From: Flavobacteriales bacterium
Lineage (GTDB): Bacteria > Bacteroidota > Bacteroidia > Flavobacteriales_F > PHOS-HE28
Reading direction: 5' to 3'
Assembly (NCBI GenBank): GCA_023957375.1
Contig: JAMLHB010000003.1
Coordinates: forward strand, 5,830-69,829
Length of the DNA: 64,000 nucleotides
Shown here piece after piece: positions 489 through 56,910 of this stretch. The position numbers and the translations under genes were made by a program. Each line of letters starts with the position of its first letter. Within the stretch, counting starts at the first letter, position 1. The notes beneath the pieces were generated by a model. That model was not told the DNA's origin, did no database searches, and saw only the letters and a list, made by a program, of their open reading frames with translations.

Positions 489-3362
489 ATGCTTCGGAAA
501 ATACGCCTGTTCCTGTTGGCATTGCCATTGGCAACTGTTCCGCGGATTTCCTTGGCCCAGAACTTCAATTTCACCAGCGGCCCCATTCCGCTGTGCGACA
601 CCACCTACTTCACGGCCACGGTAAGCGGCATTGGCGCGCTGGTGTATCCGGGCAGCTTCTCCGACGGCTACTACCTGAGTGATGTGTGGCTGAACATCAC
701 CACCAACCACCCGCAAACCCTGCAGATCTTTTTAACCTCACCCAACGGCTTCGTGCTGCTGCTTTCGCAGTTCAATGGGGCGGGCGGGCAGAACTACACG
801 GACACCCACTTCAACGGCTGGCAGAACATCACCACTGGAACAGCACCCTTTACGGGCAGTTTCCTGCCCCAAGGCGGCTCTGACCTAGGCAACTACTTCG
901 CTGGTTGGAGCGGGGACGGTATCTGGACCCTGACGGTGATTGACACGGCTTGCGCCAATGGGGGTACCGGCCCAGACGGAGATTGGGTACCTGGCTCTTT
1001 CGGTGGTGGTGGCGGTGGCGGTGGTGGGCCCACTGGAGGAGCTGGCATGGGGTTTGGCTACAACATTGGCAACCCATGGGTTCATTTGCCGGATGTTACA
1101 GTCTACCTCTGTCCGGGCGGAAGTGTGGATATTCTGGGGTATTATTGGGAGAGTGTATATATTGGTGGTGTATTAGGGACCCCTGATCCACCAAACCCGA
1201 ATGCCGTGACCACCCCTGGGACGTATGGCGTCGTCGGCTCTCACTGGGATCAGAACTTCATCATCAATTCATACCCTGCAGATCCGCTTGGCCCGGACCA
1301 ATCCGTGGTGCAATGCGACCTTTCCGTTCCGGTGAATCTTGCCGCCCTCTTCCAGGTGACGGACTTAACCTTGACTTGGAGCTTTAACGGATCCCCAATC
1401 CCAGCTTCCACAGCCGTCTCCGCTACCAATGCCGGCGTGTACCAAGTGATCGGGCAGAACGCGAACGGTTGCAACGACACGGCCTTGGTCACCCTTGCTA
1501 ATGGAAGTGATTTTTTGGGCGCCGATCAATCGCTAAACATTTGCAACGGATCAAGCACGGACCTCACCACCTTGTTCCCCACTTCCGGGGCCACGGAAAC
1601 GTGGTTCTTCGGGGGCACCTCCATTCCTGCGCCTACTGCAGCAAGCAACCCAGGCACCTACACCTTGGTCGCAACGGCGGCATCGGGCTGCGCCGATACG
1701 GCTGAGGTGGTGCTGAACGCGCTGCCCGCCGTGGCCTTGGGCGCCGATCAAGCAGCCACGCTGTGCAGCAATGCAACCGTTGACCTTGCAGCGCTGTTCA
1801 CAACAACCGGCCTTTCCTCCGCATGGACCTTGAACAATGCAACTGTTCCAGACCCCACAGCCGTGGATACGGCTGGCCTTTACACCTTGGTAGCCACGAA
1901 CGGTTCCGGATGTTCAGACACTGCACAGGTGACCCTTGTTTCTGCCGCAGCCCCGGTGCTCGGGCCGGATGCAGCGCAAGCAACCTGCGAAGGCAACACT
2001 GTGGACCTGACAGCGAGCTTCAACCCGGCAGGTCTTACCACGGCATGGACACTGTCCGGTGCGGCAGTACCTGACCCCACTGCCGTTGGCGCCACCGGGC
2101 TTTACACATTGGTGGCCACCAATGCCGCTGGCTGCAGCGACACGGCCCAAGTAGCTGTGACGATCAACCCGGACCCGGTGTTGGGCGCCGACCAATCCAT
2201 CACCGCGTGCACCGGCCATCCCGTGAACTTGGGCAGCCTCTACGATACCGCCCCGCATGTTGCCGTATGGACGGTCAACGGCACGCCCGTTCCGGATCCG
2301 GCAGCGGTAACCAATGCGGGAAGCTATTTGCTCACCGTCACTTCATCGGAAGGATGCTCCGCAACGGCCACCGTGGACCTGGCCTTTGTGCCTGCGCCGG
2401 ACCTCGGCGCGGACATGGCCTTGACCATCTGCGCGGACAGCATGATCGACCTGGCCACCTTGTACCCCACCACAGGGCTTTCCGCCACGTGGACCCAGGG
2501 GAGCGCGCTGGTGACATACGCATCTGGCGTGGCGCTGCCGGGCATGTACCAGCTGGTAGTTTCCAATGGGGCATGCACCGATACGGCCAAAGTGGTGCTC
2601 ACGGTCAATCCGAACCCTTCCCTTGGCGAGGACCAACCCTTCACGCTGTGCCCCTGGCAAACGGTGAATTTGGGCACCTTGTTCCCAACGGACGGGCTCA
2701 GCACGGCCTTCACATTGAACGGCGTGCCCGTGGCCAACCCTGATTCCGTGCATGCGGCGGGGGTGTATGCCGTAACGGCCACGAACGCTGCGGGATGCAG
2801 TGACGTGGCAAACGCCATCATCACCAACATGGATTGCCTCTGCGAAGCGGACTTCCAAACGGATGCGCTTTGCTTGCAGGAACCTGCGCAGTTCACGCTG
2901 ATCGCGGATTCCACCGTGCAAGCCGTACACTGGGATTTTGGCGGTGCTGCAACTGCTTCCACGGAGCTGAACCCCGAAGTGCATTTTGAGGCGGGCCAGG
3001 ACGTGCCCGTCACCCTGCAAGCCACGCTCAGTTGCGGCGTGGTCACCGTGGAGCACATCGTACACGTCGAGGACTGCTCACAGAGCTGCCACCTGTGGTT
3101 TCCCAACTCCTTCACACCGGACAAGGACGACAAGAACGACATGTGGAACTGGGCCGGTGATTGCACCCCTGATCCGTACAAGCTGATGATCTTCAACCGC
3201 TGGGGCGAACTCATCTTCTCCACCACCGATCCGCATGATGCGTGGGACGGCACCTACGGCGGTGTGCCCTCGCCCATCGGCGTGTACGTGTACAAGGCCG
3301 AATACCAGTTTCCCTACCAGGATGCGCAGACGGCCATTGGCCATATCACGCTGGTGAGGTAA
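489..3362 (+). CDS. Large secreted T9SS cargo protein: signal peptide, proprotein-convertase P-domain-like region, poly-Gly linker, ~10 tandem Cys-containing Ig-like repeats, T9SS type-B C-terminal domain
   Basis: N-terminal signal peptide. Residues ~50-165 fit the P-domain pattern (IFLTSPNGF...WSGDGIWTLTVID). A G9 linker follows. The C-terminus HLWFPNSFTPDKDDKNDMW...YKLMIFNRWGELIF...GVYVYKAEYQF matches the gliding-motility-associated C-terminal (type B) sorting domain. Confidence 0.8.
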   Translation: MLRKIRLFLLALPLATVPRISLAQNFNFTSGPIPLCDTTYFTATVSGIGALVYPGSFSDGYYLSDVWLNITTNHPQTLQIFLTSPNGFVLLLSQFNGAGGQNYTDTHFNGWQNITTGTAPFTGSFLPQGGSDLGNYFAGWSGDGIWTLTVIDTACANGGTGPDGDWVPGSFGGGGGGGGGPTGGAGMGFGYNIGNPWVHLPDVTVYLCPGGSVDILGYYWESVYIGGVLGTPDPPNPNAVTTPGTYGVVGSHWDQNFIINSYPADPLGPDQSVVQCDLSVPVNLAALFQVTDLTLTWSFNGSPIPASTAVSATNAGVYQVIGQNANGCNDTALVTLANGSDFLGADQSLNICNGSSTDLTTLFPTSGATETWFFGGTSIPAPTAASNPGTYTLVATAASGCADTAEVVLNALPAVALGADQAATLCSNATVDLAALFTTTGLSSAWTLNNATVPDPTAVDTAGLYTLVATNGSGCSDTAQVTLVSAAAPVLGPDAAQATCEGNTVDLTASFNPAGLTTAWTLSGAAVPDPTAVGATGLYTLVATNAAGCSDTAQVAVTINPDPVLGADQSITACTGHPVNLGSLYDTAPHVAVWTVNGTPVPDPAAVTNAGSYLLTVTSSEGCSATATVDLAFVPAPDLGADMALTICADSMIDLATLYPTTGLSATWTQGSALVTYASGVALPGMYQLVVSNGACTDTAKVVLTVNPNPSLGEDQPFTLCPWQTVNLGTLFPTDGLSTAFTLNGVPVANPDSVHAAGVYAVTATNAAGCSDVANAIITNMDCLCEADFQTDALCLQEPAQFTLIADSTVQAVHWDFGGAATASTELNPEVHFEAGQDVPVTLQATLSCGVVTVEHIVHVEDCSQSCHLWFPNSFTPDKDDKNDMWNWAGDCTPDPYKLMIFNRWGELIFSTTDPHDAWDGTYGGVPSPIGVYVYKAEYQFPYQDAQTAIGHITLVR
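1269..2826 (+). repeat. Intragenic tandem repeats, ~10 copies of ~235-245 bp (~80 aa units)
   Basis: The protein shows a recurring unit LGADQ...C.G..VDL..L....GL...W.LNG..VPDP.AV...G.Y.LVATN..GCSDTA.V.L. The DNA copies are diverged but clearly related. Confidence 0.75.
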
Positions 3363-3373
3363 CGCGATCACGC

Positions 3374-3516
3374 TCGCCCGCGTTTGCAACGCGGGCGCAT
3401 CACCCCGGTCGTTTGCAACGATCAACCCTGATCCAGCCTCACGGTCCGCCAGGCCATTGTTGCGATGAGCGCGCTGCAAGCGCCTTGATCTTCGCCCGCG
3501 TTGCAAACGCGGGCGA
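3374..3516. terminator. Pair of REP-like GC-rich palindromic hairpins downstream of the T9SS gene, with a smaller related hairpin between them
   Basis: 3375-3397 is cgcccgcg-tttgcaa-cgcgggcg and 3492-3516 is tcgcccgcg-ttgcaaa-cgcgggcga (same element, loop inverted). 3409-3421 is tcgtt-tgc-aacga, sharing the GTTTGCAAC core. The first hairpin starts 13 nt after the stop codon. Confidence 0.5.
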
Positions 3517-3666
3517 GTGGGATTTCCTTGGTGCGCGCCCAGCGTTTGGCCACGGGAAGGCACCACTGCTGGGCAACCAGAAGGCATATTCCAAGTAAAG
3601 AGTTCATCGGTGAAGATAGGCTGCACTGCGGCCTATTTGCTTTGTGCCCGAAGCCAATTTCGAGAT

Positions 3667-3942
3667 ATGCGGATCCTGAAGGCCACCTACAATGAACTCC
3701 TTGGACGAGACGAGTGGATCATCAAGCGCAAAGCGATCATACAACGCGATGGAGGAGCTTGCCGCAACTGTGGATCAAGGGACCACCTTCAAGTTCATCA
3801 TCGGCAATATCACAAATGCCCAAAAACCGGATACAAAGTCGCGCCATGGTGCTATGCGGATCAATACCTGATCACGCTGTGCAACAATTGCCACAAACAA
3901 GGTCACCACGTTCATCACGTCCCCTGCTTCACAGTTAAATGA
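3667..3942 (+). CDS. Small HNH endonuclease (92 aa)
   Basis: MRILKATYNELL...CRNCGSRDHLQVHH...LCNNCHKQGHH is a Cys-box/HNH motif. Its stop TGA (3940-3942) overlaps the next ATG (3939-3941). Confidence 0.7.
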   Translation: MRILKATYNELLGRDEWIIKRKAIIQRDGGACRNCGSRDHLQVHHRQYHKCPKTGYKVAPWCYADQYLITLCNNCHKQGHHVHHVPCFTVK

Positions 3943-4532
3943 TCTTTAAACCCCCTGTTGCCATGAGCTTCATGAGCCGTATCTTCCAAAGAGCAGAAAA
4001 GGACACCGCCACTAAGGTGGCTGTAGCACCAGTTGATTTGGCGAATCCCACCACAACCCTCGTGGAACAGGAACTTTTTATTGACCGGGAACCACCCAGC
4101 CCCACCAAGGAATCCATGCGGACCCTCACCCGATTGGAGGAATTGGCCAGCACTGACCACCGAGAAGCGGGTCGCTTGGATGGGTTCACCTATCATGACA
4201 TGACGATTTGTGGCCAAGGGATAGAGCGGATCAAAGCCGAAATTCGCTGTGCTCTGGAGCAGGAGGTGAATCGGATCGGTCGATTTGTTGACCTGTTGGA
4301 CGTGGAGATCCGAAAGATCCAGGACACCGGCAGCGCCAATTTACTTCTTGACCTTCAGGCCAATCGCGACCAAATGGAACGGGATCGCTATCGGCTGAAC
4401 GAACAGCAGATGCTGGTCGTGGGCAACTCAGGTCTTGCCGACCTCCCGACAACCACGTATGAAGCCGGATTCCGACAGGGATATCGGGAATACTTGGAAT
4501 CCATGAACTTCATCCTAAAATACCAGGGATGA
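3939..4532 (+). CDS. Hypothetical protein (197 aa), translationally coupled to flanking genes
   Basis: ATGA overlaps at both ends (3939-3942 and 4529-4532). No motif recognised. Lower GC than the flanks. Confidence 0.55.
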   Translation: MIFKPPVAMSFMSRIFQRAEKDTATKVAVAPVDLANPTTTLVEQELFIDREPPSPTKESMRTLTRLEELASTDHREAGRLDGFTYHDMTICGQGIERIKAEIRCALEQEVNRIGRFVDLLDVEIRKIQDTGSANLLLDLQANRDQMERDRYRLNEQQMLVVGNSGLADLPTTTYEAGFRQGYREYLESMNFILKYQG

Positions 4533-5527
4533 CCATGCTGCACTTCTTCTCCATCCTCACAGGCGACCGTTACGCGACAGTTGCCAAGCACGGCCCGGTC
4601 TCCCGAAGGAAGGTGATTGCCATGGGAAGTGGCCTTCTGTTGGTAACGGGATTGTGGTTCTTCATTGGTTTCAACCTTGGCATGAATGCATTCGGCATGA
4701 AACCATTCCCCGCCCTCGCGCTCGGAGCTTCAATGAGCGCGGTGGTCTTCTTGGTGGATCGCATGGTACTGCTCAGCAGTGGGAAGCACTGGGGCATTGT
4801 TGTCTCCCGGATAGCACTTGCACTATTGATGTCCTTCCTCGGTGGCATTGGCCTTGACCTGTACATTCTACGAGCTGAGATCGATCAGACGGTTGTGGGC
4901 ATGCACAGGGAGGCACAAGCCGAGATGGCGAGTTCACTTGCCATGGGTTATGCTGACAAGCAAAATGATCTCGCCTTGGTAGTTGAACATGCCCGCCAAG
5001 AGCTGGCTGCAGCTGAGGCAGCCTGGCTCAAAGAGTTGGATGGCACCGGTGGTACCGGCCGCTATGGTGCAGGAGCGGTAGCCCGTTCAAAGGAGCGACT
5101 GGTGCATGATCGAAAGGGGGCACTTGCTGATGCACAGCAACGCGCGGACCTGCTGTCCCAAAAGATCGCTGCTGAACAACTGGCAAGGACATCCACATTG
5201 GCCCAAGCACAACGCGCCACAGGTCTATTTGACCGCATCCACGCCATGAAGAACTATATTGCCACGGACCCCTTGGTGCGGATCGTTTATCTACTGCTCA
5301 CCTTGCTCTTGATCCTTGTGGAACTATCCCCGCTGGTGGTGAAGTACGGCTTTCCCACAACGGCGTACGAGCAAGGCATCGAAGCGGCGAACCACATGCA
5401 TTGCGAGCAGGTGAGGCTGTTGGCGCACAAACAGGAGCAATTCAATGCCCGGAGCGCTGCGATGTCCGTGGAAGAACTCCGCTCCCGGGCACGGTTGCAG
5501 GCCATAACAGAAGCATACCAAGGTTGA
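4529..5527 (+). CDS. Membrane protein with two N-terminal TM helices, a long coiled-coil and a C-terminal TM helix (DUF4407-like architecture)
   Basis: Hydrophobic segments VIAMGSGLLLVTGLWFFIGF and ALALGASMSAVVFLVDRMVLL, a long Ala/Gln/Glu-rich helical middle, and a C-terminal TM segment IVYLLLTLLLILVELSPLVV. Confidence 0.6.
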   Translation: MTMLHFFSILTGDRYATVAKHGPVSRRKVIAMGSGLLLVTGLWFFIGFNLGMNAFGMKPFPALALGASMSAVVFLVDRMVLLSSGKHWGIVVSRIALALLMSFLGGIGLDLYILRAEIDQTVVGMHREAQAEMASSLAMGYADKQNDLALVVEHARQELAAAEAAWLKELDGTGGTGRYGAGAVARSKERLVHDRKGALADAQQRADLLSQKIAAEQLARTSTLAQAQRATGLFDRIHAMKNYIATDPLVRIVYLLLTLLLILVELSPLVVKYGFPTTAYEQGIEAANHMHCEQVRLLAHKQEQFNARSAAMSVEELRSRARLQAITEAYQG

Positions 5528-5613
5528 ACTTATGTCAACAAGGAACGCCCGGACACCCCAGCTTATCCAGTGCCAAGTGCATCCCTTCTACCTTGGCTGA
5601 ACCAGTTGTTGCC

Positions 5614-6642
5614 ATGCCTGTCAATAAGCACGCCCTGATCCGCTACCAAACCTTGGACCGCTGCTTTGCAAGTCGCGGCAGGCAATACTTCTTGGATGAT
5701 CTGTTGGAGGCATGCAACGAAGCCCTATTCGAGTATGACAGCAACGCAAAGGGCATTTCCCGCAGGCAGCTCTTCGAGGACATCAAGTATATGGAAAGCG
5801 CCCAAGGGTGGTCCATCCCGCTTGAACGGATCAAGGAGGAAAACAATCGGACCTGGTACCGTTACGCAGAACCTGGTTTTTCCATCAACAAGCAGCCGAT
5901 CAACGTGGATGAAGCCGCCCTGCTCAAGGAAGCGTTGCTCACCATGGGCCGCTTCAAGGGCATGCCCCAGTTCCAATGGGTGAATGAGCTCATGGTCCGA
6001 TTGGAGGCCGGATTCGGATTGCGGCAAGGTGCGGCGCATGTCATCGAGTTCGAGGAGAACCCCTATTTGAAGGGAAGTGAGCAGATCACCCCACTCTTTC
6101 ACTTCATTCTGGGAAAGCAGGTCTTGGCTGTGGAATACCAGAGCTTTAAGCATCCTGCCCCAACTTCTCTCCGTTTCCATCCATATTACCTGAAGCAGTA
6201 CAACAACCGGTGGTTTATTCTTGGCTGGAATGAACTCCTGGGGCGGCTCACCAATTTGGCGCTGGACCGGATCCAATCGCTTCGCCCGGTGCAAGGGGAA
6301 TTCCTACCCAACAGCGCCATCGATTTCTCCGAATACTTTGAAGACGTGGTGGGAGTTACAGTGCCGGAAGGGTCCGTGGAAAACGTGGAACTTCTGGTCG
6401 GTGGATCGTTATGGCCCTACATCGAGACGAAACCTCTGCATGGGTCGCAAAAAGTGATCTCACGGGATGAGGCGGGTGTTCGGGTGAAGTTGCAGGTGAA
6501 ATTGAACCATGAACTAGTGGCGTTGATCCTTTCCTTCGGAAGTGATGTGGAAGTGCTAAAGCCACCCACGCTCAGGGCATCCATGGCAGACCATGCGAAG
6601 GCAGCTCAATGCCGTTACCAAAAGAGCAAAGACCATGAGTGA
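5614..6642 (+). CDS. WYL-domain transcriptional regulator (HTH-WYL-WCX, BrxR/CapW-like)
   Basis: The N-terminal HTH region runs from MPVNKHALIRYQTLDRCF. The WYL signature is FHPYYLKQYNNRWFILGWNELLGRLTNLALDRI. Its stop TGA 6640-6642 overlaps the ATG of the next gene at 6635. Confidence 0.75.
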   Translation: MPVNKHALIRYQTLDRCFASRGRQYFLDDLLEACNEALFEYDSNAKGISRRQLFEDIKYMESAQGWSIPLERIKEENNRTWYRYAEPGFSINKQPINVDEAALLKEALLTMGRFKGMPQFQWVNELMVRLEAGFGLRQGAAHVIEFEENPYLKGSEQITPLFHFILGKQVLAVEYQSFKHPAPTSLRFHPYYLKQYNNRWFILGWNELLGRLTNLALDRIQSLRPVQGEFLPNSAIDFSEYFEDVVGVTVPEGSVENVELLVGGSLWPYIETKPLHGSQKVISRDEAGVRVKLQVKLNHELVALILSFGSDVEVLKPPTLRASMADHAKAAQCRYQKSKDHE

Positions 6643-9256
6643 AGATGCACATACGGACGGGGTCTATCCGGCAAGGAATATCGGCACGGCAGCAACCTTG
6701 GTCCTGTTAGGGGCCAATCGCGCAATGACTGCGGAGGCCATTGCCGATCGCCTGCGCATTGAAGGGAGCACGGACGATCCATGTTCCGCTTCAGACGTGC
6801 TGGCATGGGCCAATCAGAAAGGCTACTTGAATGAGCAGGGGAAGATCTGGTTTAGCGGATTGAACGAAGCCTTGGTTCTGCGTAATGACTTTCGAGGTGC
6901 CCTATTCTGGAGCAATTGGAGTCGATCGTTCGGATATCAGCGCCTCGCCGCCGCTGCCGTGCTCAGCATCAGCCGGTTCTTGCAGACACACCCGGACCAC
7001 CCATCAACCGATTCCATGCGCCAGCTCCTTATGGCTGGCCTTCACCATGAGTCGCTCGCGCAGCTCTTACGCACGATCGGTGAAATTGCCGGTGCGCCCA
7101 ACCTTCCCGAACGGCTGGGGATTGCAGCCTGGTCCGAATTACGGATCCGGGACCTTGGCCGGCTCATTAGCGCACTGAGCCCAGGCGTAGGCTTCACGGG
7201 GGAACATTCTTTTTCCATTGGGGATGAGTGGTGGCAGTTTGCCCACGCCAAAAAGGTCGAAGGGCGGCGCGCAATTACGTTGAAAAAGGAAATCAGTTCG
7301 CTTCGACTTACCACCGACGAGTTCCCGTATGACCACTGGATACAACTGCGTGCACCTGGTCGGGAGTTCTTTTTTCCGGATGCGCAATTTGCCGCACCTG
7401 CCTTTTTGCACCATCGGTCTCTTGTGCTGCGGGACATCCGGGTCACCGGTTATTGTGCCGATGCGGATGAACGGGATGGACTACGGCTTATGCTGTCGGC
7501 ACAGGGTATCGAGCATGACCTCCATGTCAGAAACGGGCAGGGCGCCATCCCTCTCCCATCCACCCCGGGCACTTCAGTAGTGACCTGCCCGGTGGACGCT
7601 AAGAAAGCCCTGCTCTATGCCAAGGAGTTCTTACGCACTGCTACCCAACCCGGACACCGGCGACTTTTCCTGATCGCTCCAATAGCTTGTTTCCATGAAA
7701 TAAACGCTGAGTGGGATAAGGTGCGCAGGGAAATGGTGGAGCGGGATCTCTTGGATTGCATGTTGACACTCCCGCAGGTAGGAAAGCAGATGTCCGACCT
7801 CGGCATGTTCGTATTGGACAACAACAAGTGGGAGGATGCAAAGGGCCTGGTATTGTTCGGAGGTGGAACCAACAACATGAACATAACCAATCCCGACGAT
7901 CCAATAGTCCGTAAGTTGGATGGTCTGAAAACGTTCGCCTTCAGGATGTCCCTCCAAATGGCAGCACGGGATCGCAAAGGCGCCTGTACGTTGATCACGA
8001 ATGACATCATTCTAACCGATCCCAACTGCCGACTCGCTATAGCATATTGTTATCATCCATTTTCAGTGATAAGCAGTTCTTTCCCATGGGAGGAATTGAA
8101 GCAATTCAAGGAAGTTGGAAGTATCATGGACTTTTCGATCGGAGTCACAGTTGATGCCAATGGAGACATTACACGCGAAGGTGTGATCAAGGCGCTGCGG
8201 AAGGACATGGCCTTGCCGGAATACGTTCGACACGAATTGGCTGAACGATACATGGAACAACAGATGGAGAAGATCAGGACCTATAAGCCCCAATGGGGCT
8301 ACCCCGATGCATACATCCGGATCCCATCGATTGAAGCCCAACTTCGGAAAGTGGAGGGCCTCAAACGTTCATGGGGGCTTCTCCCCATGTCCGAGACGGA
8401 AGGTGTATCGGACGATTGGGTCGCCAACGTGGTGGACAACATCCTGTTGCGCAACGAGGACCCTGAGCAGTGCAAGCTGAACCTGGGTTACATCATTCGT
8501 GAGCTGCAGCGCGTGGAGCGTACCCGTGCCTTGGCCGATGCCGAGGAAGCCTACAAAGCCTACCGCCATGATCTGGGCAACATGACCGGCCGCGTCAGGG
8601 ACAGCATTTCACTCCTGAAAGGGCAAATGAAGAAGCCTGATGCATGGACGGCATTAGCCACGGATACGCATGGCCGCTTGGAGGGCACCCTTTCCACCCT
8701 CGATCATTACTTTGAAAAGATGAAAGGCCTACTCACCGATCAGGAAAAATGCTTCACCAATGAGCACTATTCCCTAACAGCAGTGGAGCTGTCGGATGTC
8801 CTGAACAATGTGATCGGCGGTTTTAAAGATCCCGATGTCCGGTTGGAATACCGGGGTGGCCCTGCCCAGGTATGGGCCGATCGGCAAAAGCTGGAGCAAC
8901 TGATCACCAACCTGGTGTTAAATGCGATCGGCCATGGCAAGGTAGCGGGCAGGGAATTGTGCATCGTTCTGGACCGCATGGATGAATGGGACCAAGACTG
9001 GGGCGAGCCAGGCAGCATACCGCTTTTCATTGGCAATAACGGCAAAGCCTTTGAGCAGAGCTTTGACGAATTGACCAAGCAAGGAAGGCGCTCCAAACAA
9101 AGCAAAGGTGAAGGCCTTGGCCTGTACTTGGCACGCAAATGGGCAAAGGGCATGGGCGGTGAACTGGAAATGGCAAATGGAACGTTTCCTGCTATTGATG
9201 ACATAAGTCCACCGCTTTCCGTCGGCTTCTTCCTCCACCTGCGACAGGTTGAATAA
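6635..9256 (+). CDS. Cytoplasmic histidine-kinase-like protein (873 aa): ~600 aa uncharacterised N-terminal region, putative H-box, C-terminal HATPase_c
   Basis: C-terminal N-box LITNLVLNAIGHG, G1 FIGNNGKAF and G2 GEGLGLYLARKWAKGMGGEL. Candidate H-box YRHDLGNMTG. No TM segments are evident. Lower GC than the flanks. Confidence 0.7.
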   Translation: MSEDAHTDGVYPARNIGTAATLVLLGANRAMTAEAIADRLRIEGSTDDPCSASDVLAWANQKGYLNEQGKIWFSGLNEALVLRNDFRGALFWSNWSRSFGYQRLAAAAVLSISRFLQTHPDHPSTDSMRQLLMAGLHHESLAQLLRTIGEIAGAPNLPERLGIAAWSELRIRDLGRLISALSPGVGFTGEHSFSIGDEWWQFAHAKKVEGRRAITLKKEISSLRLTTDEFPYDHWIQLRAPGREFFFPDAQFAAPAFLHHRSLVLRDIRVTGYCADADERDGLRLMLSAQGIEHDLHVRNGQGAIPLPSTPGTSVVTCPVDAKKALLYAKEFLRTATQPGHRRLFLIAPIACFHEINAEWDKVRREMVERDLLDCMLTLPQVGKQMSDLGMFVLDNNKWEDAKGLVLFGGGTNNMNITNPDDPIVRKLDGLKTFAFRMSLQMAARDRKGACTLITNDIILTDPNCRLAIAYCYHPFSVISSSFPWEELKQFKEVGSIMDFSIGVTVDANGDITREGVIKALRKDMALPEYVRHELAERYMEQQMEKIRTYKPQWGYPDAYIRIPSIEAQLRKVEGLKRSWGLLPMSETEGVSDDWVANVVDNILLRNEDPEQCKLNLGYIIRELQRVERTRALADAEEAYKAYRHDLGNMTGRVRDSISLLKGQMKKPDAWTALATDTHGRLEGTLSTLDHYFEKMKGLLTDQEKCFTNEHYSLTAVELSDVLNNVIGGFKDPDVRLEYRGGPAQVWADRQKLEQLITNLVLNAIGHGKVAGRELCIVLDRMDEWDQDWGEPGSIPLFIGNNGKAFEQSFDELTKQGRRSKQSKGEGLGLYLARKWAKGMGGELEMANGTFPAIDDISPPLSVGFFLHLRQVE

Positions 9257-9261
9257 AATCA

Positions 9262-10401
9262 ATGGACATGAAGATTCTACTGATCGATGACGAACCACAA
9301 GAACAGTTCCGCGCACTCGCGCAGGCGCAGGAAATTGAGATCTTGCATGAACCCGATCGCCACGTTGACGAGTGCTTGGAGTTCCTGCGGCGAGAATATT
9401 GGGATATCGATGCGGTGATCGTGGATGGCAGACTGGATCCCAACCAACAATTTCAAGGCTTGAGCCGAACGACCGGCCGCATCCAGGAATTGAACGGGAC
9501 AAACCATTGGTGGAAACCATTTTGCGTCTGGACCGGCTATGCAGAGGATATAAGGAACGTGGTGGACCAGCATATCCAGGTCTTCGATAAGGCAGATGGC
9601 GGGCAACCGGTCCTGGACTACCTCAAAGGCATCATTGAAGATCTTCCCGCATACAGGGTGAAGATGAAATTCAAAGATGCCTTGCAAGCTTGTGACACAG
9701 CAAAATTGACCCCTGACTCAAAGAACCACATCAACGCCATACTTCGGAACCTGTTCGGAAACAGCACGCTTGATGAAGATTACCCCAAGCATTTACGCAG
9801 CTGCCTTGAATCGATGTTCCGCTCCGCCCATGGTCTTGGGCTCGTGCATGAGAAGTGCATTGAGAAGAACAGGGTGAATCTTACTGCATGTTCCTTGTTC
9901 CTTAGTGGACATCCCGTAGAAAAGCTCAATGTGAAATGTACCAAGCGCCACGCGCCGGAACTGGTCGGGCAACACATACACCATATCCTCAATGTCACCA
10001 ATGCATTCAGCCACAGCGAAGACCCGATCAAGGGCAAGCTCAATGCATATCGTGAATGGATAAAAACACCCTATCTATTGTACAGCCTTACTTTCGAACT
10101 ACTGGATGTGTTGGTGTGGTACAAAGCGTATGCTGAGGCTCATCCAAACATAGAAGACAACAAGAAATTATGGGTGGTTGATTCCCAAGAGGCCGAAAAC
10201 ATCCAAATGATTCCGGGCGTGATTACATTCATCCACCCGCAAGGGTATGGATTTTTCAGTGCGAGCACGGATGGCTCCGAAGCTTATATCCCACACGATG
10301 TGGTATCCGCGAATGAGCTCATCCAGGGGATGAAGATCGAGGTGGCTACAGTAACAAAAGCTAAAGGTCCGGTGGTGAAGAAGCTCAGAATCCTGGATTG
10401 A
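9262..10401 (+). CDS. Response-regulator receiver protein with an unknown middle region and a C-terminal cold-shock (OB-fold nucleic-acid-binding) domain
   Basis: REC: MKILLIDDE...DAVIVDGRLDP...CVWTGY...FDKADG. C-terminus: GVITFIHPQGYGFFSASTDGSEAYIPHDVV...GMKIEVATVTKAKGPVVKKLRI, which resembles the CspA pattern G.V.WFN..KGFGFI...G.DVFVH.S.......G..V.F....G.KGP.A..V. Confidence 0.65.
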   Translation: MDMKILLIDDEPQEQFRALAQAQEIEILHEPDRHVDECLEFLRREYWDIDAVIVDGRLDPNQQFQGLSRTTGRIQELNGTNHWWKPFCVWTGYAEDIRNVVDQHIQVFDKADGGQPVLDYLKGIIEDLPAYRVKMKFKDALQACDTAKLTPDSKNHINAILRNLFGNSTLDEDYPKHLRSCLESMFRSAHGLGLVHEKCIEKNRVNLTACSLFLSGHPVEKLNVKCTKRHAPELVGQHIHHILNVTNAFSHSEDPIKGKLNAYREWIKTPYLLYSLTFELLDVLVWYKAYAEAHPNIEDNKKLWVVDSQEAENIQMIPGVITFIHPQGYGFFSASTDGSEAYIPHDVVSANELIQGMKIEVATVTKAKGPVVKKLRILD

Positions 10402-10879
10402 AGCGAATATTCGTTCCGTCCGCCTCAATCACCCTCTCCACCTGCTCGCGTGGGAACCCCTTCCCCACAAAATACCGCACCACCTTCTCACGGCGGATCC
10501 ATGGGTCGGTTTCCTGGGTGCGCTCCCAGCACTTGGCCACGGCCAATTTCAGTTGTTCGCTTTCCTCCTCCCCATCGATGGCCTTTAAGCCTGAGGTGAT
10601 GCAGCTTGCCGAAACTCCTTTGGCCTTCAGCGCCAGCTCTATCTTCCTGCGCCCCCATCCCTTCTGGCGGCTCTTGCTCACGGCGTAGTGCTCCGCGAAG
10701 CGCGCCTCGTTGAGGAAGCCCTCACTAATGAGCTGCGCAATGACCTGTTCCACATCTTCCTTGTGGCTGCCCCAGGCATAGAGCTTGTCGCGCACTTCCT
10801 GTTGGGCGCGTTCTTGGCGGGCGCAGTAGGCGCGGGCTTTGGAGAGCAACGCGGTCAACATGGTTGGAGGCATGGCCAC
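10385..10879 (-). CDS. recX: Recombination regulator RecX
   Basis: 164 aa with the RecX-like helical repeat pattern (ARAYCARQERAQQEVRDKL...VIAQLISEGFLNEARFAEHY). Its 3' end overlaps the island gene convergently by ~17 nt. Confidence 0.65.
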   Translation of the reverse strand: MAMPPTMLTALLSKARAYCARQERAQQEVRDKLYAWGSHKEDVEQVIAQLISEGFLNEARFAEHYAVSKSRQKGWGRRKIELALKAKGVSASCITSGLKAIDGEEESEQLKLAVAKCWERTQETDPWIRREKVVRYFVGKGFPREQVERVIEADGTNIRFNPGF

Positions 10880-10912
10880 GGTAGATCACAAATAACGGAG
10901 GCAAAGGTTTGA

Positions 10913-10977
10913 TTTGTCCGATGTCTTATGTCCTATGCGGTACGCAATCGCGCATAGGACATAAGACATCGGACAAA
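10913..10977. repeat. Perfect 27 bp inverted repeat (hairpin, 11 nt loop) between rng and recX
   Basis: 10913-10939 tttgtccgatgtcttatgtcctatgcg, loop gtacgcaatcg, and 10951-10977 cgcataggacataagacatcggacaaa, which is the exact reverse complement. Confidence 0.9.
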
Positions 10978-10998
10978 GGCAGTATCTCCGACCTCCCC

Positions 10999-12546
10999 CT
11001 ACACCGCCACCTCCTTGCCCTCGCCATCAAAGACATGGAACTCGAGGTAGCGGCTGGAACCTTGTGGCACCACCTTCACCCATTTCTTCCAGCGCCACCA
11101 CCACTTGTGCTGGATGCTGGGCAGCCCCTTTGTGAAGTAGGAGGCAACGAAGGGATGCACGTGCAGACTGAGGCCGCCCATGTCCTTCTCTGATAACAGG
11201 TAGTTGAGGGCGTTCTCGATCTCGTCCACGATGAGCACGGGGGCGCTCACCTCTCCGGTGCCGCCGCAGGTGGGGCAAGCTTCGCTGGTATCGATCTCGG
11301 TTTCGGGACGCACGCGCTGGCGCGTCATTTCGATCACTCCGAACTTGCTTGGCGGAAGCACGTTGTGCTTGGCCTTGTCGTCCTCCATGGCGTCCTTGAG
11401 CGCCTTGTGGAGGGTGCGGCGGTTCTCCGGCTCATACAGGTCGATGAAATCCACGCAGATGATGCCGCCCATGTCGCGCAGGCGCAGCAGGCGTGCGATC
11501 TCCTTGGCAGCCTCCACGTTGATGGCTAAGGCGTTGGTCTCCTGGTCGTTGCGCCCGCCCTTGCGGCTGCCGCTGTTCACGTCGATGACGTGCATGGCCT
11601 CCGTCTTCTCGATGATGAGATAGGCTCCGCTGGGCAGCATGACCTGCCTGCCGAAAGCTTGTTTGATCTGCTTGTTGATCCCGAAGTTGTCGAAGATGTC
11701 CAGCTTGCCCTTGTACAGTTTCACAATGCCCACGCGGTCCGGTGCGGTGCGTTCCAAGGTCTGGCGCACTTCCTCCAACACCTGTTCGTCGTCCACGATG
11801 ATGCTGGTGAACTCCTTGTTGAGCACATCGCGCAGCACCGCGCTGGTGCGGTCCACTTCGCCGAGCACCTGCTTGGGGGGCATGGCGTTGCGCAGGTTGC
11901 GGAACATCTGGTCCCAGCGCTGCAGCAAGTGCTTCAGGTCGGCCTCCAGGTCCTCGGTGCGGCGGCCCTCGGCATTGGTGCGGATGATGATGCCGAAGTT
12001 CTTCGGGCGGATCTCCTGCAGGAGGGCTTTGAGGCGCTTGCGCTCGGCCTCGTCGGTGAGGCGGCTGCTGATGTGCACCCGGTTGGTAAAGGGTACCAGC
12101 ACCATGTAGCGGCCCGGCAGGGTCACTTCGGCAGTGAGGCGCGGGCCTTTGGTGCTGATGGGCTCCTTGGCGATCTGCACCAGGATGCTCTGGCTGGCGC
12201 TGAGCACATCGGGCAGCTTACCCTCCTTGGGGATGTCGGGATCGATCTTCCAGTCGTCCAGCAGGGAAGTTTTCACCGTGCCGCTCACCGCTCCCTTGGC
12301 AAACTTGTAGCTGTTGCGGTACTGCGGCCCCAGGTCGTAGTAATGCAGGAAGGCATCCTTTTCATGGCCCACGTCCACGAAGGCGGCATTGAGCCCTGGC
12401 GCCACCTTTCGGACCTTGGCCAAGTAAATGTCGCCCACGGCAAAGCCACGCTCGGTCCGCTCGCGGTGCAACTCCATGAGGAGCTTGTCGCGCAATACGG
12501 CGATGGCCACTTCGCTCCCTTGGGAACGGATGATCAGGTCTACGCT
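10999..12546 (-). CDS. rng: Ribonuclease G (Rne/Rng family). Likely GTG start at 12546; the upstream in-frame extension to 12636 is not used.
   Basis: The N-terminus VDLIIRSQGSEVAIAVLRDKLLMELHRER and the S1 region GDIYLAKVRKVAPGLNAAFVDVGHEKDAFLH are diagnostic of RNase G/E. Confidence 0.85.
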   Translation of the reverse strand, partial: SVDLIIRSQGSEVAIAVLRDKLLMELHRERTERGFAVGDIYLAKVRKVAPGLNAAFVDVGHEKDAFLHYYDLGPQYRNSYKFAKGAVSGTVKTSLLDDWKIDPDIPKEGKLPDVLSASQSILVQIAKEPISTKGPRLTAEVTLPGRYMVLVPFTNRVHISSRLTDEAERKRLKALLQEIRPKNFGIIIRTNAEGRRTEDLEADLKHLLQRWDQMFRNLRNAMPPKQVLGEVDRTSAVLRDVLNKEFTSIIVDDEQVLEEVRQTLERTAPDRVGIVKLYKGKLDIFDNFGINKQIKQAFGRQVMLPSGAYLIIEKTEAMHVIDVNSGSRKGGRNDQETNALAINVEAAKEIARLLRLRDMGGIICVDFIDLYEPENRRTLHKALKDAMEDDKAKHNVLPPSKFGVIEMTRQRVRPETEIDTSEACPTCGGTGEVSAPVLIVDEIENALNYLLSEKDMGGLSLHVHPFVASYFTKGLPSIQHKWWWRWKKWVKVVPQGSSRYLEFHVFDGEGKEVAV

Positions 12547-19682: not shown

Positions 19683-20966
19683 ATGGGAAGTTTCGACCCA
19701 ACGGTGTGGGCCGCATGCGGCGGGATCATGGTCCTGCTGCTGCTGTCCGCCATGACCTCCGCCAGCGAAGTGGCGCTATTCTCCCTGAACGCCACCCACC
19801 TGCGCGACCTCAAGGAACGCGGCGGGCCCAGCGGAGGGCGGGTATTGGAACTGCTGGCCCAGCCACGCCGCCTGTTGGCCACCATCTTGGTGACGAACAA
19901 CTTCGCCAACGTGGGCATCACCGTGCTCTCCACCGTCCTGGTGGCCCGCATGATCAACCTGCTCTCCTTAAGTGCCCAGTGGGTCTTCCTGCTGCAAGTG
20001 GTGGCCGTTACCGCCCTGATCCTCCTGCTCGGCGAGGTGCTGCCCAAGGTGTACGCCACCAGCCACCCCATGCGGGTGGCCCAGTTCTTCAGTGCACCGG
20101 TGCTGCTCATGCGGTCCTTCTGGACCCCGGTCACCAAACCGCTGATGGGTTCCACCGCCTTCATTGAGAAACGCTACAGAAAACGGTCCACGGAGGTGGA
20201 TGCGGACACGCTGGGCCACGCCTTGGAGCTCACCAACGACGCCAGCACCACCGAAGAAGAGCAGCGCATCCTCAAAGGCATCGTCAAGTTCGGCAACATC
20301 GAGGCACGCCAAGTGATGCGGCCCCGCACCGAGGTGACCGCCTTCAGCAAGGACATCTCCTTCAAGGAACTGCTGGAGGCCATCGTTGGCAGCGGATTCT
20401 CGCGCGTGCCGGTGTATGAAGACACCATGGACCGCGTGGTGGGCGTGCTGTACATCAAGGATGTGCTGCCCCACATCGACGCAGCGGACTACGAATGGAA
20501 CACCCTGCTCCGCCCCGCCTTGTTCGTGCCCGAAAACAAGAAGTTGGACGAGCTGCTCCAGGAATTCCAGCGCAAGCATGTGCACTTGGCCGTGGTGGTG
20601 GACGAGTACGGAGGCACCTGCGGCATCATTACCTTGGAAGACGTGATCGAGGAGATCGTGGGAGACATCACGGACGAGTATGACGACGTGGACCTGATCT
20701 ACAGCAAACTGGACGACCACACATACGTGTTCGAGGGGCGCGCGCCGCTCACCGACATGTACCGCATCTTAGGCATCGATGGCAAGCTTTTCGAGGAACA
20801 CAAGGGCGAAAGCGAAACCCTGGGAGGGTTCGTACTGGAGCTCACCGGACGCATTCCGCAGAAAGGCGAGCGCGTGACCCTGCACAATTTCGACTTCACC
20901 GTGGAAAGCGCCGACAACAAGCGCGTGCGCCGCGTGAAGGTCCATTTCAGGAATGAAGGAGCCTAA
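19683..20966 (+). CDS. gldE: Gliding motility protein GldE (CNNM/CorC-HlyC family: DUF21 TM domain + CBS pair + CorC_HlyC)
   Basis: Four-TM DUF21 region, CBS pair, and C-terminal CorC_HlyC. It sits immediately upstream of gldD, as in Flavobacteria. Confidence 0.75.
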   Translation: MGSFDPTVWAACGGIMVLLLLSAMTSASEVALFSLNATHLRDLKERGGPSGGRVLELLAQPRRLLATILVTNNFANVGITVLSTVLVARMINLLSLSAQWVFLLQVVAVTALILLLGEVLPKVYATSHPMRVAQFFSAPVLLMRSFWTPVTKPLMGSTAFIEKRYRKRSTEVDADTLGHALELTNDASTTEEEQRILKGIVKFGNIEARQVMRPRTEVTAFSKDISFKELLEAIVGSGFSRVPVYEDTMDRVVGVLYIKDVLPHIDAADYEWNTLLRPALFVPENKKLDELLQEFQRKHVHLAVVVDEYGGTCGIITLEDVIEEIVGDITDEYDDVDLIYSKLDDHTYVFEGRAPLTDMYRILGIDGKLFEEHKGESETLGGFVLELTGRIPQKGERVTLHNFDFTVESADNKRVRRVKVHFRNEGA

Positions 20967-21006
20967 GGAATTGGCAGGTGGCAGGCGGCAGGCGGCAGCC
21001 CGGAGC

Positions 21007-21660
21007 ATGCGCGCACTACTGCCCGCTGCCACCCGCCTACTACCCGCTGCTCTCTGCCTACTGCTCCTGCAAATGCTCCTGGCCAACTGCACCAGCGACC
21101 CCATTCCCAAGCCGCACGGCTACTTCCGCATCGACCTGCCACCCGACAGCGCCCACCATGCCGCTGCGCCATGCCCGTTTGCCGCCACCATTCCCAGCTA
21201 TGCCCGCTTGACCACCGGCACGGGGCCAGGCCAAGTAGCAGGCATGGGCACAACTTGTTGGGCGGACCTCGTTTTCCCGGGGCAACGCGCCGTGGTGCAC
21301 ATGACCTGGCGCCGCATTCAGAACGACCTGCCCGAGCTGGTCCATGATGCGCATGAGTTCAAGGAGAAGCACCAGGCCATGGCCAGCCGGATCCGTACCG
21401 AGGAGGTCCTGCGCGACAGTGCCCGCGTCTTCGGCACCCTGTTCGACGTGGAAGGCAACGTGGCCAGCCCGCTGGTGTTCTACCTCACGGACAGCACCAG
21501 TAACTTCCTTTACGGTGCGCTCTATTTCGACGTGCGGCCAAACGCCGATTCACTGGCCCCGGTGACCGGCCGCATCCGCAGCGACATCCGGCGCATGGCC
21601 GCCACCCTGCAGTGGAACGGGCCTGCCGGTGCGGTGGAGCACATTGATCAGCGCCGTTAG
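21007..21660 (+). CDS. gldD: Gliding motility lipoprotein GldD
   Basis: Lipoprotein signal ...LLANC followed by TSDPIPKPHGYFRIDLP, characteristic of GldD. Located downstream of gldE. Confidence 0.65.
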   Translation: MRALLPAATRLLPAALCLLLLQMLLANCTSDPIPKPHGYFRIDLPPDSAHHAAAPCPFAATIPSYARLTTGTGPGQVAGMGTTCWADLVFPGQRAVVHMTWRRIQNDLPELVHDAHEFKEKHQAMASRIRTEEVLRDSARVFGTLFDVEGNVASPLVFYLTDSTSNFLYGALYFDVRPNADSLAPVTGRIRSDIRRMAATLQWNGPAGAVEHIDQRR

Positions 21661-26108: not shown

Positions 26109-26232
26109 GGTTGTCAAGGCGTGGTTCGCAGTTGTCAGTTGTCTGTTGTCAGGCTTTCTGCGACCAGCCTCCGACCACTGACAACCGACAACTGACAACT
26201 GACAACCGAAAACTGATCACTGAGAACTGCCC
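26109..26232. repeat. Heptamer repeat array with inverted partner
   Basis: gttgtcaaggcgtggttcgcagttgtcagttgtctgttgtcagg ... ctgacaaccgacaactgacaactgacaaccgaaaactga. Confidence 0.7.
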
Positions 26233-32539: not shown

Positions 32540-32734
32540 TCTTTTGGCGGGCTACTTTCTTCTGTCCGTTTGATCCTCGTGCAGGTACTTCGCTTCGAGA
32601 CCCTAATCCTCCCGCAAGGTCTTCGCATCGAGACCCCGCAGTTTGCGCGATGCCGCGGTGAAGCTACGCCAATATCAACCCGTAATGTTTTGGTGCGCAG
32701 GGTCCAGAAACGGAGACACTGAGCGAAGGTAAAG

Positions 32735-44390: not shown

Positions 44391-44393
44391 TCG

Positions 44394-44496
44394 GTTGTCA
44401 GTTGTCAGTTGTCAGTTGTCAGTTGTCGGTTGTCGGTTGTCGGTTGTCGGTTGTCTGTTTCTGGCGCCCCACCCTTACAACGAGCAACTGACAACG
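44394..44496. repeat. Heptamer tandem array (GTTGTCR x ~9) with inverted partial partner, between dapD and the response regulator
   Basis: ggttgtcagttgtcagttgtcagttgtcggttgtcggttgtcggttgtcggttgtctg ... caacgagcaactgacaacgaacaacc. Confidence 0.85.
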
Positions 44497-44520
44497 AACA
44501 ACCACCCTAAAGGAAGAAAA

Positions 44521-54732: not shown

Positions 54733-54848
54733 ATTGTCAGTTGTCAGTTGTCGGTTGCCAGTTGTCAGTTGTCAGTTGTCCGTTGTCCGTTGTTAGGTGT
54801 TAGACGGTACGTCCGCCTGACAACGGACAACTGGCAACCGACAACTAC
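54733..54848. repeat. Heptamer tandem array with inverted partner between convergent genes
   Basis: gttgtcagttgtcggttgccagttgtcagttgtcagttgtccgttgtccgttgtt ... cctgacaacggacaactggcaaccgacaac. Confidence 0.85.
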
Positions 54849-55373: not shown

Positions 55374-56846
55374 ATGGCCCGCGACACCTCATACACCGTA
55401 GACGCTTCCCGCCTGCACGGCGTGCTGGACCAACCGCTCTTTGTGGCGGCCGCGAAGGTGGCCGAACGCATGGGCGTGAAGGCGTACACCATTGGCGGTT
55501 ATGTGCGCGACCTGCTGTTGGGCAAGCCTTGCAAGGACATCGACATCGTATGCGAAGCCGACGGCATTGCGTATGCCCAGGCCGTGGCGCAGGAATTGAA
55601 TGCGGGCCACGTGCATGTCTTCAAGAATTTCGGCACGGCCATGTTCATGCTGGGCGACGTGCAAGTTGAATTCGTGGGGGCGCGCAAGGAGAGTTACAGC
55701 CGCAACAGCCGCAAGCCGGAGGTGGTGCCCGGCACCATCCGCGACGACCAGGAGCGGCGCGACTTCACCATCAATGCCTTGGCCATCCCACTCAACGCGG
55801 AAGACCGCGGGCAGCTGGTCGACCCGTTCTACGGCGTGCACGACCTAGAGCGCGGCATCATCCGCACCCCGCTGGCACCGGACATTACCTTCAGCGACGA
55901 TCCGCTGCGCATGCTCCGTGCCATCCGCTTCGCCACGCAGTTGGGCTTCTTCATCGATGCGCCCACCTTCGAGGCCATCCAGCGGAATGCCGAACGCTTG
56001 GACATCATCAGTGCCGAGCGCATCCACACCGAGCTGAACAAGATCATCGGGGCACCGGTGCCCAGCATCGGCTTCAAGCTGCTCTTAGACAGCGGCCTGC
56101 TGGTGCGCTTCTTCCCCGAAATGGTCGACCTGCTGGGCGCGGAGGAAAAATTCGGCATCGGGCACAAAGACAACTTCTACCACACCATCCAGGTGCTGGA
56201 CAACGTGGCCAAGCACAGCGACGACCTGTGGCTGCGCTGGGCCGCCGTGCTGCACGACATCGCCAAGCCGCGCACCAAACGCTTCGAGCAGGGCCGCGGC
56301 TGGACCTTCCACGGGCATGAGGACAAGGGCGCGCGCATGGTGCCCGGCATCTTCCGCCGCATGAAGCTGCCCTTAGACGAGCAGATGCGCTTCGTGAAAA
56401 AGCTGGTGGCCCTGCACCTGCGCCCCATCGCCCTCACCAAGGAGGAAGTCACCGACAGCGCCGTGCGCCGCCTGCTCTTCGATGCCGGCGACGACATCGA
56501 CGCGCTGATGATCCTCTGCAAGGCGGACATCACCAGCAAGAACGAGGCCCGCAAGAAGCGCTACTTAGCCAACTACGAGCTGGTGCTGGAAAAGCTGAAG
56601 GAAGTGGAGGAAAAAGACCGTGTGCGCAACTTCCAGCCGCCCATCACCGGCGAGGACATCATGGGCGCCTTCAACATCCCGCCCTGCAAGGCCATCGGCG
56701 ACATCAAGACGGTGATCAAGGACGCGATCCTCGACGGCAGGATCCACAACGACCGCGCCGCCGCTTGGCCGTTGATGCTGGAGGAGGGGAAGAAGTTGGG
56801 GCTGACGGTGGTGAATGGGATGGAGGGGCCGGGGAGTAGTTCGTAG
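55374..56846 (+). CDS. cca: tRNA nucleotidyltransferase (CCA-adding enzyme/poly(A) polymerase family) with HD domain
   Basis: GGYVRDLLLGKPCKDIDIV (PolA head), RRDFTINAL, and HD motif HDIAKP. Confidence 0.8.
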   Translation: MARDTSYTVDASRLHGVLDQPLFVAAAKVAERMGVKAYTIGGYVRDLLLGKPCKDIDIVCEADGIAYAQAVAQELNAGHVHVFKNFGTAMFMLGDVQVEFVGARKESYSRNSRKPEVVPGTIRDDQERRDFTINALAIPLNAEDRGQLVDPFYGVHDLERGIIRTPLAPDITFSDDPLRMLRAIRFATQLGFFIDAPTFEAIQRNAERLDIISAERIHTELNKIIGAPVPSIGFKLLLDSGLLVRFFPEMVDLLGAEEKFGIGHKDNFYHTIQVLDNVAKHSDDLWLRWAAVLHDIAKPRTKRFEQGRGWTFHGHEDKGARMVPGIFRRMKLPLDEQMRFVKKLVALHLRPIALTKEEVTDSAVRRLLFDAGDDIDALMILCKADITSKNEARKKRYLANYELVLEKLKEVEEKDRVRNFQPPITGEDIMGAFNIPPCKAIGDIKTVIKDAILDGRIHNDRAAAWPLMLEEGKKLGLTVVNGMEGPGSSS

Positions 56847-56910
56847 TTCGGCGTTCGGAGTGCTCACACCACCAACCACGAACTACGCCCTAACAACGGA
56901 CAACTGGGAT
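56836..56910. repeat. GTAGTTCG repeat with inverted partner plus GGACAAC unit
   Basis: gtagttcgtagttcggcgttcgg ... cacgaactacgccctaacaacggacaactgg. Confidence 0.55.

Follow-up and report, generated by a model that had tools for sequence, protein, structure and literature searches.

What is a perfectly paired stem of 27 bp doing in the spacer between rng and recX of an uncultured member of the Flavobacteriales? The stretch considered here, hereafter the window, is 64,000 nt of contig JAMLHB010000003.1 (Flavobacteriales bacterium, assembly GCA_023957375.1). A first-pass annotation had pointed out a perfect 27-bp inverted repeat with an 11-nt loop in this spacer, offering three explanations: a very stable terminator, a protein-binding palindrome, or the footprint of a mobile element. 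The hairpin very probably belongs to a lineage-specific family of palindromic repeats built from heptamers and, on balance, is best regarded as a heptamer palindrome kept intact at the DNA level and serving, incidentally or by co-option, as a stem-loop at the rng 3' end. It appears not to be a regulatory site specific to rng or to recX.

The element and the genes on either side of it are laid out as follows (ORF, open reading frame):

10951..10977, minus strand: 5' arm of the rng-sense transcript, TTTGTCCGATGTCTTATGTCCTATGCG, with units (T)TTGTCCGA / TGTCTTA / TGTCCTA / TGCG
10940..10950, minus strand: loop of 11 nt, CGATTGCGTAC in rng sense
10913..10939, minus strand: 3' arm of the rng-sense transcript, CGCATAGGACATAAGACATCGGACAAA
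10999-12636, minus strand: ORF of rng, RNase E/G family by domain annotation
10999..11001, minus strand: rng stop codon TAG, 21 nt upstream of the hairpin along transcription
10385-10879, minus strand: ORF of recX, with three of three RecX domains found
10861..10879, minus strand: candidate recX starts (GTG 10879, ATG 10873, ATG 10861), 33-51 nt downstream of the hairpin
10894..10906, minus strand: 3' half of a weak outer helix (CUUUGCCUCC...), pairing with 10986-10999 in the predicted fold

Reading of the sequence and a repeat finder agree on two arms (10913-10939 and 10951-10977) of 27 nt each, 11 nt apart and complementary at 27 of 27 positions, so the inverted repeat is as first described; 100 dinucleotide shuffles gave no match to the arm. 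The palindrome is perfect, with TTTGTCCGATGTCTTATGTCCTATGCG also read 5' to 3' on the plus strand at 10913-10939. Its placement between rng and recX is likewise right (RNase E/G and three RecX domains are annotated), as is the remark that it is AT-richer than its surroundings: 30 of its 65 nt are G or C (46%), against 57.5% at 10001-12000. What had gone unmentioned is the inner order of the arms, a 7-nt period with a TGTC core. Each arm is made of three 7-nt units, TGTCCGA-TGTCTTA-TGTCCTA-TGC (or, phased otherwise, TTTGTCC-GATGTCT-TATGTCC-TATGCG), and by Tandem Repeats Finder (TRF) the arms contain 3.3 and 3.9 copies of a 7-nt period. The 3' arm has a single stop-free frame of three, ATA GGA CAT AAG ACA TCG GAC. 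The loop is the sole part that varies freely among orthologues and family copies.

RNA folding, which had been suggested as a check, gave -47.6 kcal/mol for the 81-nt stretch (z = -11.7), with 0 of 200 shuffles equally stable, and -61.4 kcal/mol for the hairpin plus flanks (z = -8.7). The outer helix lengthens the predicted structure and is conserved only partly in orthologues (flanks of loci L001, L006 and L048). As to the candidate recX starts, RecX homologues cover about 91% of the longest ORF, and just upstream TTATTTG may bear a faint, weak likeness to the Bacteroidota -7 box.

Is the element peculiar to this locus? The arm has no other copy in the window, even allowing 3 mismatches. A scan of one genome per GTDB species for exact matches to a 19-mer from the arm found 33 loci. 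About 20 of these loci are full hairpins in Flavobacteriales metagenome-assembled genomes (MAGs), with the same units in the same order around unrelated loops of 4-28 nt, and each MAG has 1-3 exact matches as a lower bound; the rest, in other phyla, are plain (GGACATC/GGACATA)n arrays. By its RecX homologues the window falls among uncultured high-GC "Flavobacteriales bacterium" MAGs (best match 88% identical), and it is in this clade that copies have dispersed to unrelated loci, a phenomenon confined to it. Intergenic copies lie 6-58 nt after the stops of glpK, tgt, typA/bipA, a V/A-type ATPase subunit gene and others. The ORFs annotated beside copies are housekeeping genes or lack a Pfam match, and none is a transposase. 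Among IMG/VR viral contigs the arm 19-mer has 0 matches.

The plain arrays were seen in pure form in Planctomycetota MAGs (L015, L027, L039, L040) and in Aerophobetes (L024, L031); those of L027 form a hairpin with 43-nt arms, so inverted heptamer arrays as such are not confined to Flavobacteriales.

Not all copies stand at gene ends. In five MAGs the hairpin lies within a fused methylmalonyl-CoA mutase (MCM) gene, where alignment with human MCM (8gju) shows 22 extra aa between AASG and GN(I/L)L, and in three MAGs it lies within a WbqC-family gene. In-gene copies measure exactly 63 nt from TGTC to GACA in 7 of 7 cases (intergenic rng copies, 56-61 nt). They are in frame, using for the 3' arm the one frame without stops (IGHKTSD), and as sense RNA they fold at -37 to -53 kcal/mol. 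A WbqC search recovered many orthologues with an insert of 21-23 aa at the same position (225-232 aa; insert-free forms, 204-207 aa). The inserts fall into at least five classes that, when read back to DNA, are heptamer types (TGTC-, GGTC-, GTTGTCA-, GCGAGT- and GCAAGC-), a match confirmed in DNA for insert-free, GCAAGC-type (region -59.5 kcal/mol) and decayed GTTGTCA-type alleles.

These in-gene copies argue against the family existing to terminate transcription, and they weigh against an alternative that we consider unlikely: that the hairpin was selected for rng as an RNA element in its own right, either a terminator needing no T-tract or a stem-loop that stabilizes the mRNA, with the other copies being independently selected terminators on heptamers that are easy to grow. 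Identical arms occur in frame within MCM and WbqC, where a terminator would be harmful.

Among the MCM copies, those of L014 (3659-3725), L016, L029 and L038 have two stem transversion mismatches in common, A-A and T-T, and that of L034 is perfect and lacks both. The mismatches may reflect relief of the hairpin in a coding sequence, or selection on the peptide.

At rng itself, inheritance of the copy is vertical, and its palindrome persists even where both arms have changed. Relatives share the gene order mutY-hup-TPR-rng-recX, and in L001, L006/L022, L033, L048/L056, L051 and L054 the same hairpin lies about 20 nt beyond the rng stop; in L051, a 2.6-kb metagenome contig whose Rng C-terminus is a 100% match, it differs by one loop base. 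Identity at the site is 92% in the arms, 88% in the rng coding end and 56% in the downstream spacer. In L048 a T-A to C-G change is mirrored in both arms, and in L054 so are TGTCCGA to TGTCTTA and TTA to TCA. Over 11 copies, 92% of cells are paired and 15 of 27 pairs are invariant; double-sided change affects 6 of 27 pairs, against 3.0 +/- 1.0 in shuffles, 4 of 500 of which reached 6.

To which of its two neighbors does the hairpin belong? Several relatives have an MNT/HepT toxin-antitoxin pair between hairpin and recX, and the hairpin is kept beside rng either way; it therefore travels with the rng 3' end and not with recX. This bears on the protein-binding palindrome of the first-pass annotation, which would be a duplex-DNA site (a recX/SOS operator, or a nucleoid-protein site) with each arm binding half a dimer. 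A perfect palindrome upstream of recX, a strongly conserved arm sequence, the TGTC...GACA symmetry and 21-bp arms that would correspond to two helical turns are all what such a site might look like. It is nonetheless very improbable: where the cassette is present recX gets other upstream sequence, the same arms follow unrelated genes and stand inside coding sequences, loops of 4-28 nt would shift the spacing of the half-sites, and L044 has kept recX although its hairpin is deleted. That deletion (2043-2100) also took part of HepT, and its junction shows AAGACATC microhomology between the hairpin 3' arm and a stretch of HepT that resembles it.

The rng-recX spacer is a hotspot for this cassette (NTP_transf_2 plus HepT-like, on the opposite strand), which was located at:

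L001, 3480-3869: MNT/HepT cassette
L006, 3351-3984: MNT/HepT cassette
L048, 1710-2451: MNT/HepT cassette
L044, 2154-2393: MNT/HepT cassette

L048 and L033 carry a duplicated recX 5' fragment between hairpin and cassette, and in L001 two heptamer hairpins of different types flank the cassette. RYYYAAC/GTTRRRY ends, as of an integron attC for the neighboring cassette, were not seen in the sequence by reading, and the idea was not taken further.

The mobile-element footprint suggested at first holds in so far as the hairpin is one of a dispersed palindromic family; it fails as the scar of an island. Here the first-pass annotation was wrong about the neighborhood: it had put the hairpin at the boundary between a conserved block and recX plus an island, and recX lies within the mutY-hup-TPR-rng-recX block. 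In L007 and L046 a CHU_C/P_proprotein gene like that at 489-3362 directly abuts the recX 3' end; in the window this type IX secretion system (T9SS) gene (489-3362) is separated from it by about 7 kb (about 3363-10384). The island therefore begins where recX ends, some 500 bp away from the hairpin. A classical miniature inverted-repeat transposable element (MITE), or an insertion scar of the 7-kb island or the toxin-antitoxin cassette, is barely credible, and the synteny largely refutes it. A structure resembling terminal inverted repeats does lie in a spacer that is a cassette hotspot in relatives, but the island is on the far side of recX, the hairpin is present with or without the cassette, and the cassette junctions vary between lineages. 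MITEs are recognized by terminal inverted repeats with a target-site duplication; here the whole element is an inverted repeat, and the flanks of at least 12 independent sites show no consistent duplication, only isolated repeats (GCCTTTG at the rng site, CGTAT in L028). No related insertion sequence with matching termini was found in the window or the fetched loci.

What, then, might the hairpin do in the rng transcript? Intrinsic terminators usually have a G+C-rich stem of 5-14 bp and a loop of 3-8 nt. The present stem (27 bp, 44% G+C, 11-nt loop) does not fit. No T run follows it on either strand (rng sense continues with TCAAACCTTTGCC, the other strand with GGCAGTATCTCC), and a terminator/promoter scan of the spacer made no call at the hairpin. 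An Rfam scan of 10300-11600 (E <= 10) returned only eukaryotic microRNA (miRNA)-precursor models, on both strands and far below thresholds, which were rejected as generic long-hairpin matches.

The case for a dedicated RNA element is partly one of position. The hairpin is 21 nt past the rng stop, most intergenic copies are 2-58 nt past a stop, and several lineages have some heptamer hairpin at the rng 3' site, with compensatory changes. In the AT-rich far relatives L112 (1728-1782) and L117 (1731-1777), a canonical hairpin with a T-tract occupies the same place, about 15 nt after the rng stop, and the window has no excess of canonical terminator-like sites (16, 18 and 12, against about 18 expected). 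The missing T-tract speaks against it, as does the conservation of the arm sequence beyond mere pairing (the 15 invariant pairs). So does comparison by distance, for which eighty loci were fetched via the Rng C-terminus: close relatives (at least 91% identity) have 4 long heptamer hairpins in 17.8 kb, and mid-distance relatives (76-85% identity) do without, with 0 in 76 kb and an rng-recX spacer of 30-60 nt. Finally, an element kept for its RNA might show an asymmetry between G-U and A-C pairs on the two strands, and none was seen: 14 oriented copies folded as sense and as antisense differed consistently neither in minimum free energy nor in G-U counts.

With no strand bias in the folds, maintenance of the stem is not assignable to the transcript, and the RNA and DNA levels are indistinguishable by this comparison. 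Correction of quasipalindromes by template switching or gene conversion is an established mutational mechanism, and maintenance of the stem would fit such DNA-level correction equally well. A secondary role at the rng 3' end, as an exonuclease barrier, in T-tract-independent termination or in RNase III processing, is plausible in view of the position at the gene end, the terminator of far relatives in that place and the lack of a canonical terminator excess; this is what remains of the very stable terminator first suggested. RNase III needs a duplex of roughly 20 bp, which the perfect 27-bp duplex exceeds.

The sites outlast their units. At the rng 3' end three unit classes are found (TGTC in the window and closest relatives, GGTC in L050, AAGC/AGCT in L004/L005, L046, L053, L057 and L065), and five are found at one WbqC codon position. 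The L050 site (2400-2480) is orthologous, with a homologous left flank and a hairpin of GGTCCAA/GGTCTTA units; every unit differs from the TGTC units of the window by one and the same T-to-G change, a pattern suggestive of concerted evolution.

The window holds other heptamer hairpins as well. An unbiased inverted-repeat search found three more long intergenic ones, with (GTTGTCA)n arms, and a smaller one was also recorded:

26123..26213, no strand assigned: (GTTGTCA)n hairpin, 27 nt after an amino-acid permease stop (z = -4.8)
44393..44503, no strand assigned: GTTGTCA hairpin with 9.4 copies in the 5' arm (z = -3.5), 2 nt past a dapD-like stop and 18 nt ahead of a response-regulator gene
54746..54846, no strand assigned: (GTTGTCA)n hairpin, 20 nt after a cytochrome c gene stop (-62 kcal/mol, z = -8.7)
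56838..56890, no strand assigned: smaller heptamer hairpin, unit AGTTCGN ... CGAACTA (z = -3.0)

By TRF, period 7 is the most frequent tandem-repeat period in the window, which has further arrays and small hairpins of other units, and for TGTC-N3-TGTC-N3-TGTC there are 15 occurrences where 0 are expected. An array of GGCAGGC units at 20965-21065 was dropped as a hairpin, its fold being no better than that of shuffles (z = -0.08). In viral contigs (L131-L194), (GTTGTCA)3 was found in 64 stretches, over a span of 36-70% G+C; several contigs have 2-5 arrays, and in a few (L131, L137, L141) it forms hairpins with the TGTC arm first. The (GTTGTCA)n unit is widespread, viral contigs included, and uninformative about the rng-site element. 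The "TGTC arm first" polarity was tried as a functional clue and dropped: an inverted hairpin keeps its polarity, which mirrors family descent only. In AAGC-type hairpins the composition is the opposite.

Another possibility is that nothing has moved, and that each locus grew an inverted heptamer array in place by slippage and fold-back template switching, with similar arms at different loci arising from mutational bias or ectopic gene conversion. A window full of heptamer arrays of many unit types fits this view, as do the different unit types borne by the same site in different lineages. In WbqC, single heptamers have been gained or lost in one arm, leaving a 7-nt bulge, and the insert-free allele already has GGTGAGCG-like units near the insertion site. 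PMC4679880 and PMC4692102, citing Mrazek 2007, rank heptanucleotides first in abundance among the long simple-sequence repeats of bacteria and ascribe them to polymerase slippage. Growth in place is nonetheless quite improbable as the whole explanation: the same order of three units plus TGC recurs at 10 or more unrelated loci in many MAGs, where convergence is unlikely, and gene conversion would itself be copying between loci.

The favored reading, a heptamer palindrome maintained in DNA, would combine parts of these processes. The element would be primarily a self-maintaining repeat at the DNA level, originating by heptamer slippage together with template switching or gene conversion that corrects the palindrome, and spreading between loci by a copy mechanism. 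At rng it would be cotranscribed with the gene and fold into a perfect 27-bp stem-loop, which most likely sets the 3' end of the mRNA or shields it, whether by terminating transcription, by blocking 3' exonucleases, or as a substrate at which RNase III separates rng from recX.

Several observations weigh against this reading. Mobility rests on distribution, with no target-site duplication, terminal signature or transposase found. Copies per MAG are few (1-3 exact 19-mer matches), against hundreds for repetitive extragenic palindromic (REP) sequences, and the loops are unrelated, which would be odd if transposition were recent. The rng and WbqC sites bear different unit types by lineage, a pattern that suits turnover in place no less than repeated insertion. 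Folded as RNA, the two strands are equally stable, giving no RNA-specific signature for the proposed role at rng, and no T-tract follows the stem. An exact arm match was also how the MCM and WbqC loci were found, so that conservation of the arms is overstated outside the rng set.

A bolder proposal is that these are an undescribed class of heptamer palindromes, carried by one uncultured Flavobacteriales clade, that colonize gene 3' ends and ORFs, stay perfect or near-perfect over speciation and have their unit type replaced at fixed sites; we put this forward tentatively, as a possibility short of an expectation. If true, it would imply a dedicated enzyme that recognizes hairpins (RAYT/Y1-like or new) or, alternatively, a new replication-linked mechanism that makes and homogenizes inverted heptamer arrays. 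The searchable literature yielded no account of heptamer-built palindromes in Flavobacteriales, which is not proof of novelty.

To our knowledge, REP sequences, REPINs, Rickettsia palindromic elements (RPEs) and MITEs are known mainly from Proteobacteria, and the function of heptanucleotide repeats, long a puzzle, is not agreed upon. The element appears closest to REPINs in architecture and evolution, to RPEs in its tolerance within genes and to heptanucleotide repeats in its building blocks, and by this comparison it lacks at least one defining feature of each.

REPINs are REP doublets that form hairpins and are associated with RAYT transposases; their inverted arms are conserved, their spacer is constrained only in length and pairing, and compensatory changes are common (Bertels and Rainey, 2011; PMC3116915). 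The present family has the same conserved inverted arms, variable hairpin-compatible spacer and compensatory changes, with dispersed copies that are mostly extragenic near 3' ends and can form hairpins in single-stranded DNA or mRNA. It differs in that the arms are three tandem heptamers and not palindromic REPs themselves, in having a handful of copies per genome (1-3 exact 19-mer matches per MAG, as a lower bound) and not tens to hundreds, and in its in-frame copies inside MCM and WbqC, whereas REPINs are strictly extragenic.

RPEs, according to the account in PMC10969869 (citing Ogata et al., 2000, 2002), are Rickettsia-restricted palindromic repeats of about 100-150 bp found in frame in unrelated housekeeping genes, whose products thereby gain a peptide segment, and also between genes. 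The likeness is that the same palindrome stands in frame in unrelated conserved genes (MCM and WbqC) of which insert-free orthologues exist. It is one of behavior only: here the element is about 63-65 nt, adds 21-22 aa, is built from heptamers, has a Flavobacteriales host and bears no sequence relationship to RPEs.

Described heptanucleotide repeats include cyanobacterial STRR, Xanthomonas GGGAATC and Beggiatoaceae/Bacteroidetes TAACTGA (PMC4692102, PMC4679880), and Nostoc heptamers (10.1101/2022.06.06.494920). The arms resemble them in the 7-nt unit repeated head to tail, the intergenic location, the lineage-specific abundance and the fast change in unit number; in Xanthomonas, moreover, some arrays are inverted repeats able to form stem-loops. 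Those repeats, however, are mostly arrays of direct copies, frequently ahead of start codons, whereas here a short fixed array of three non-identical ordered units is always accompanied by its inverse, dispersed as a unit and tolerated in genes, and the unit sequences TGTCCGA, TGTCTTA and TGTCCTA match none of STRR1-3, TAACTGA and GGGAATC. With intrinsic terminators and REP-type 3' stabilizers the element has in common a strong stem-loop about 20 nt past a stop; its 27-bp stem of 44% G+C and the lack of a T-tract on either strand set it apart from the former.

The family unites dispersed palindromes and heptamer repeats, an array plus its inverse being the heritable, dispersed unit. If confirmed, it would offer a tractable case for asking whether it is selection or templated correction that keeps palindromes perfect, a second and independent instance of protein-coding palindromes outside Rickettsia, and a candidate way for genomes without canonical terminators to mark mRNA 3' ends. 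On the practical side, such hairpins will mislead predictors of terminators, small RNAs and miRNA-like structures, and will break assemblies and gene calls in wastewater and freshwater MAGs.

The 7-kb segment beyond recX encodes a 197-aa unknown protein, a DUF4407 protein, a WYL-WCX regulator, an 887-aa HATPase_c protein and a 379-aa unknown protein, and may be a defense-type island; PADLOC, run on the island proteins, matched solely the WYL regulator. At its left edge (3367-3523) a small palindrome, CGCCCGCGTTTGCAACGCGGGCG, is present as two inverted copies 95 nt apart, a layout like that of a REPIN doublet, with a related motif, GTCGTTTGCAACGA, between them.

Elsewhere in the window, 32715-32955 and 34620-34847 contain a 120-nt tandem duplication (2 copies, 91% matches) and a 74-nt repeat (2.3 copies), the latter holding CGCGAAGG octamers together with a perfect inverted repeat of 18 nt; both are situated in or beside the window's single low-GC stretch (32-34 kb, 49% G+C). 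At 52806-52981, a 27-nt tandem repeat of 2.8 copies has the palindrome CCTCAGGGTC...GACCCTGAGG in every unit, and a similar CCCTCAG...CTGAGG palindrome follows a short GTTGTCC array at 30537-30600.

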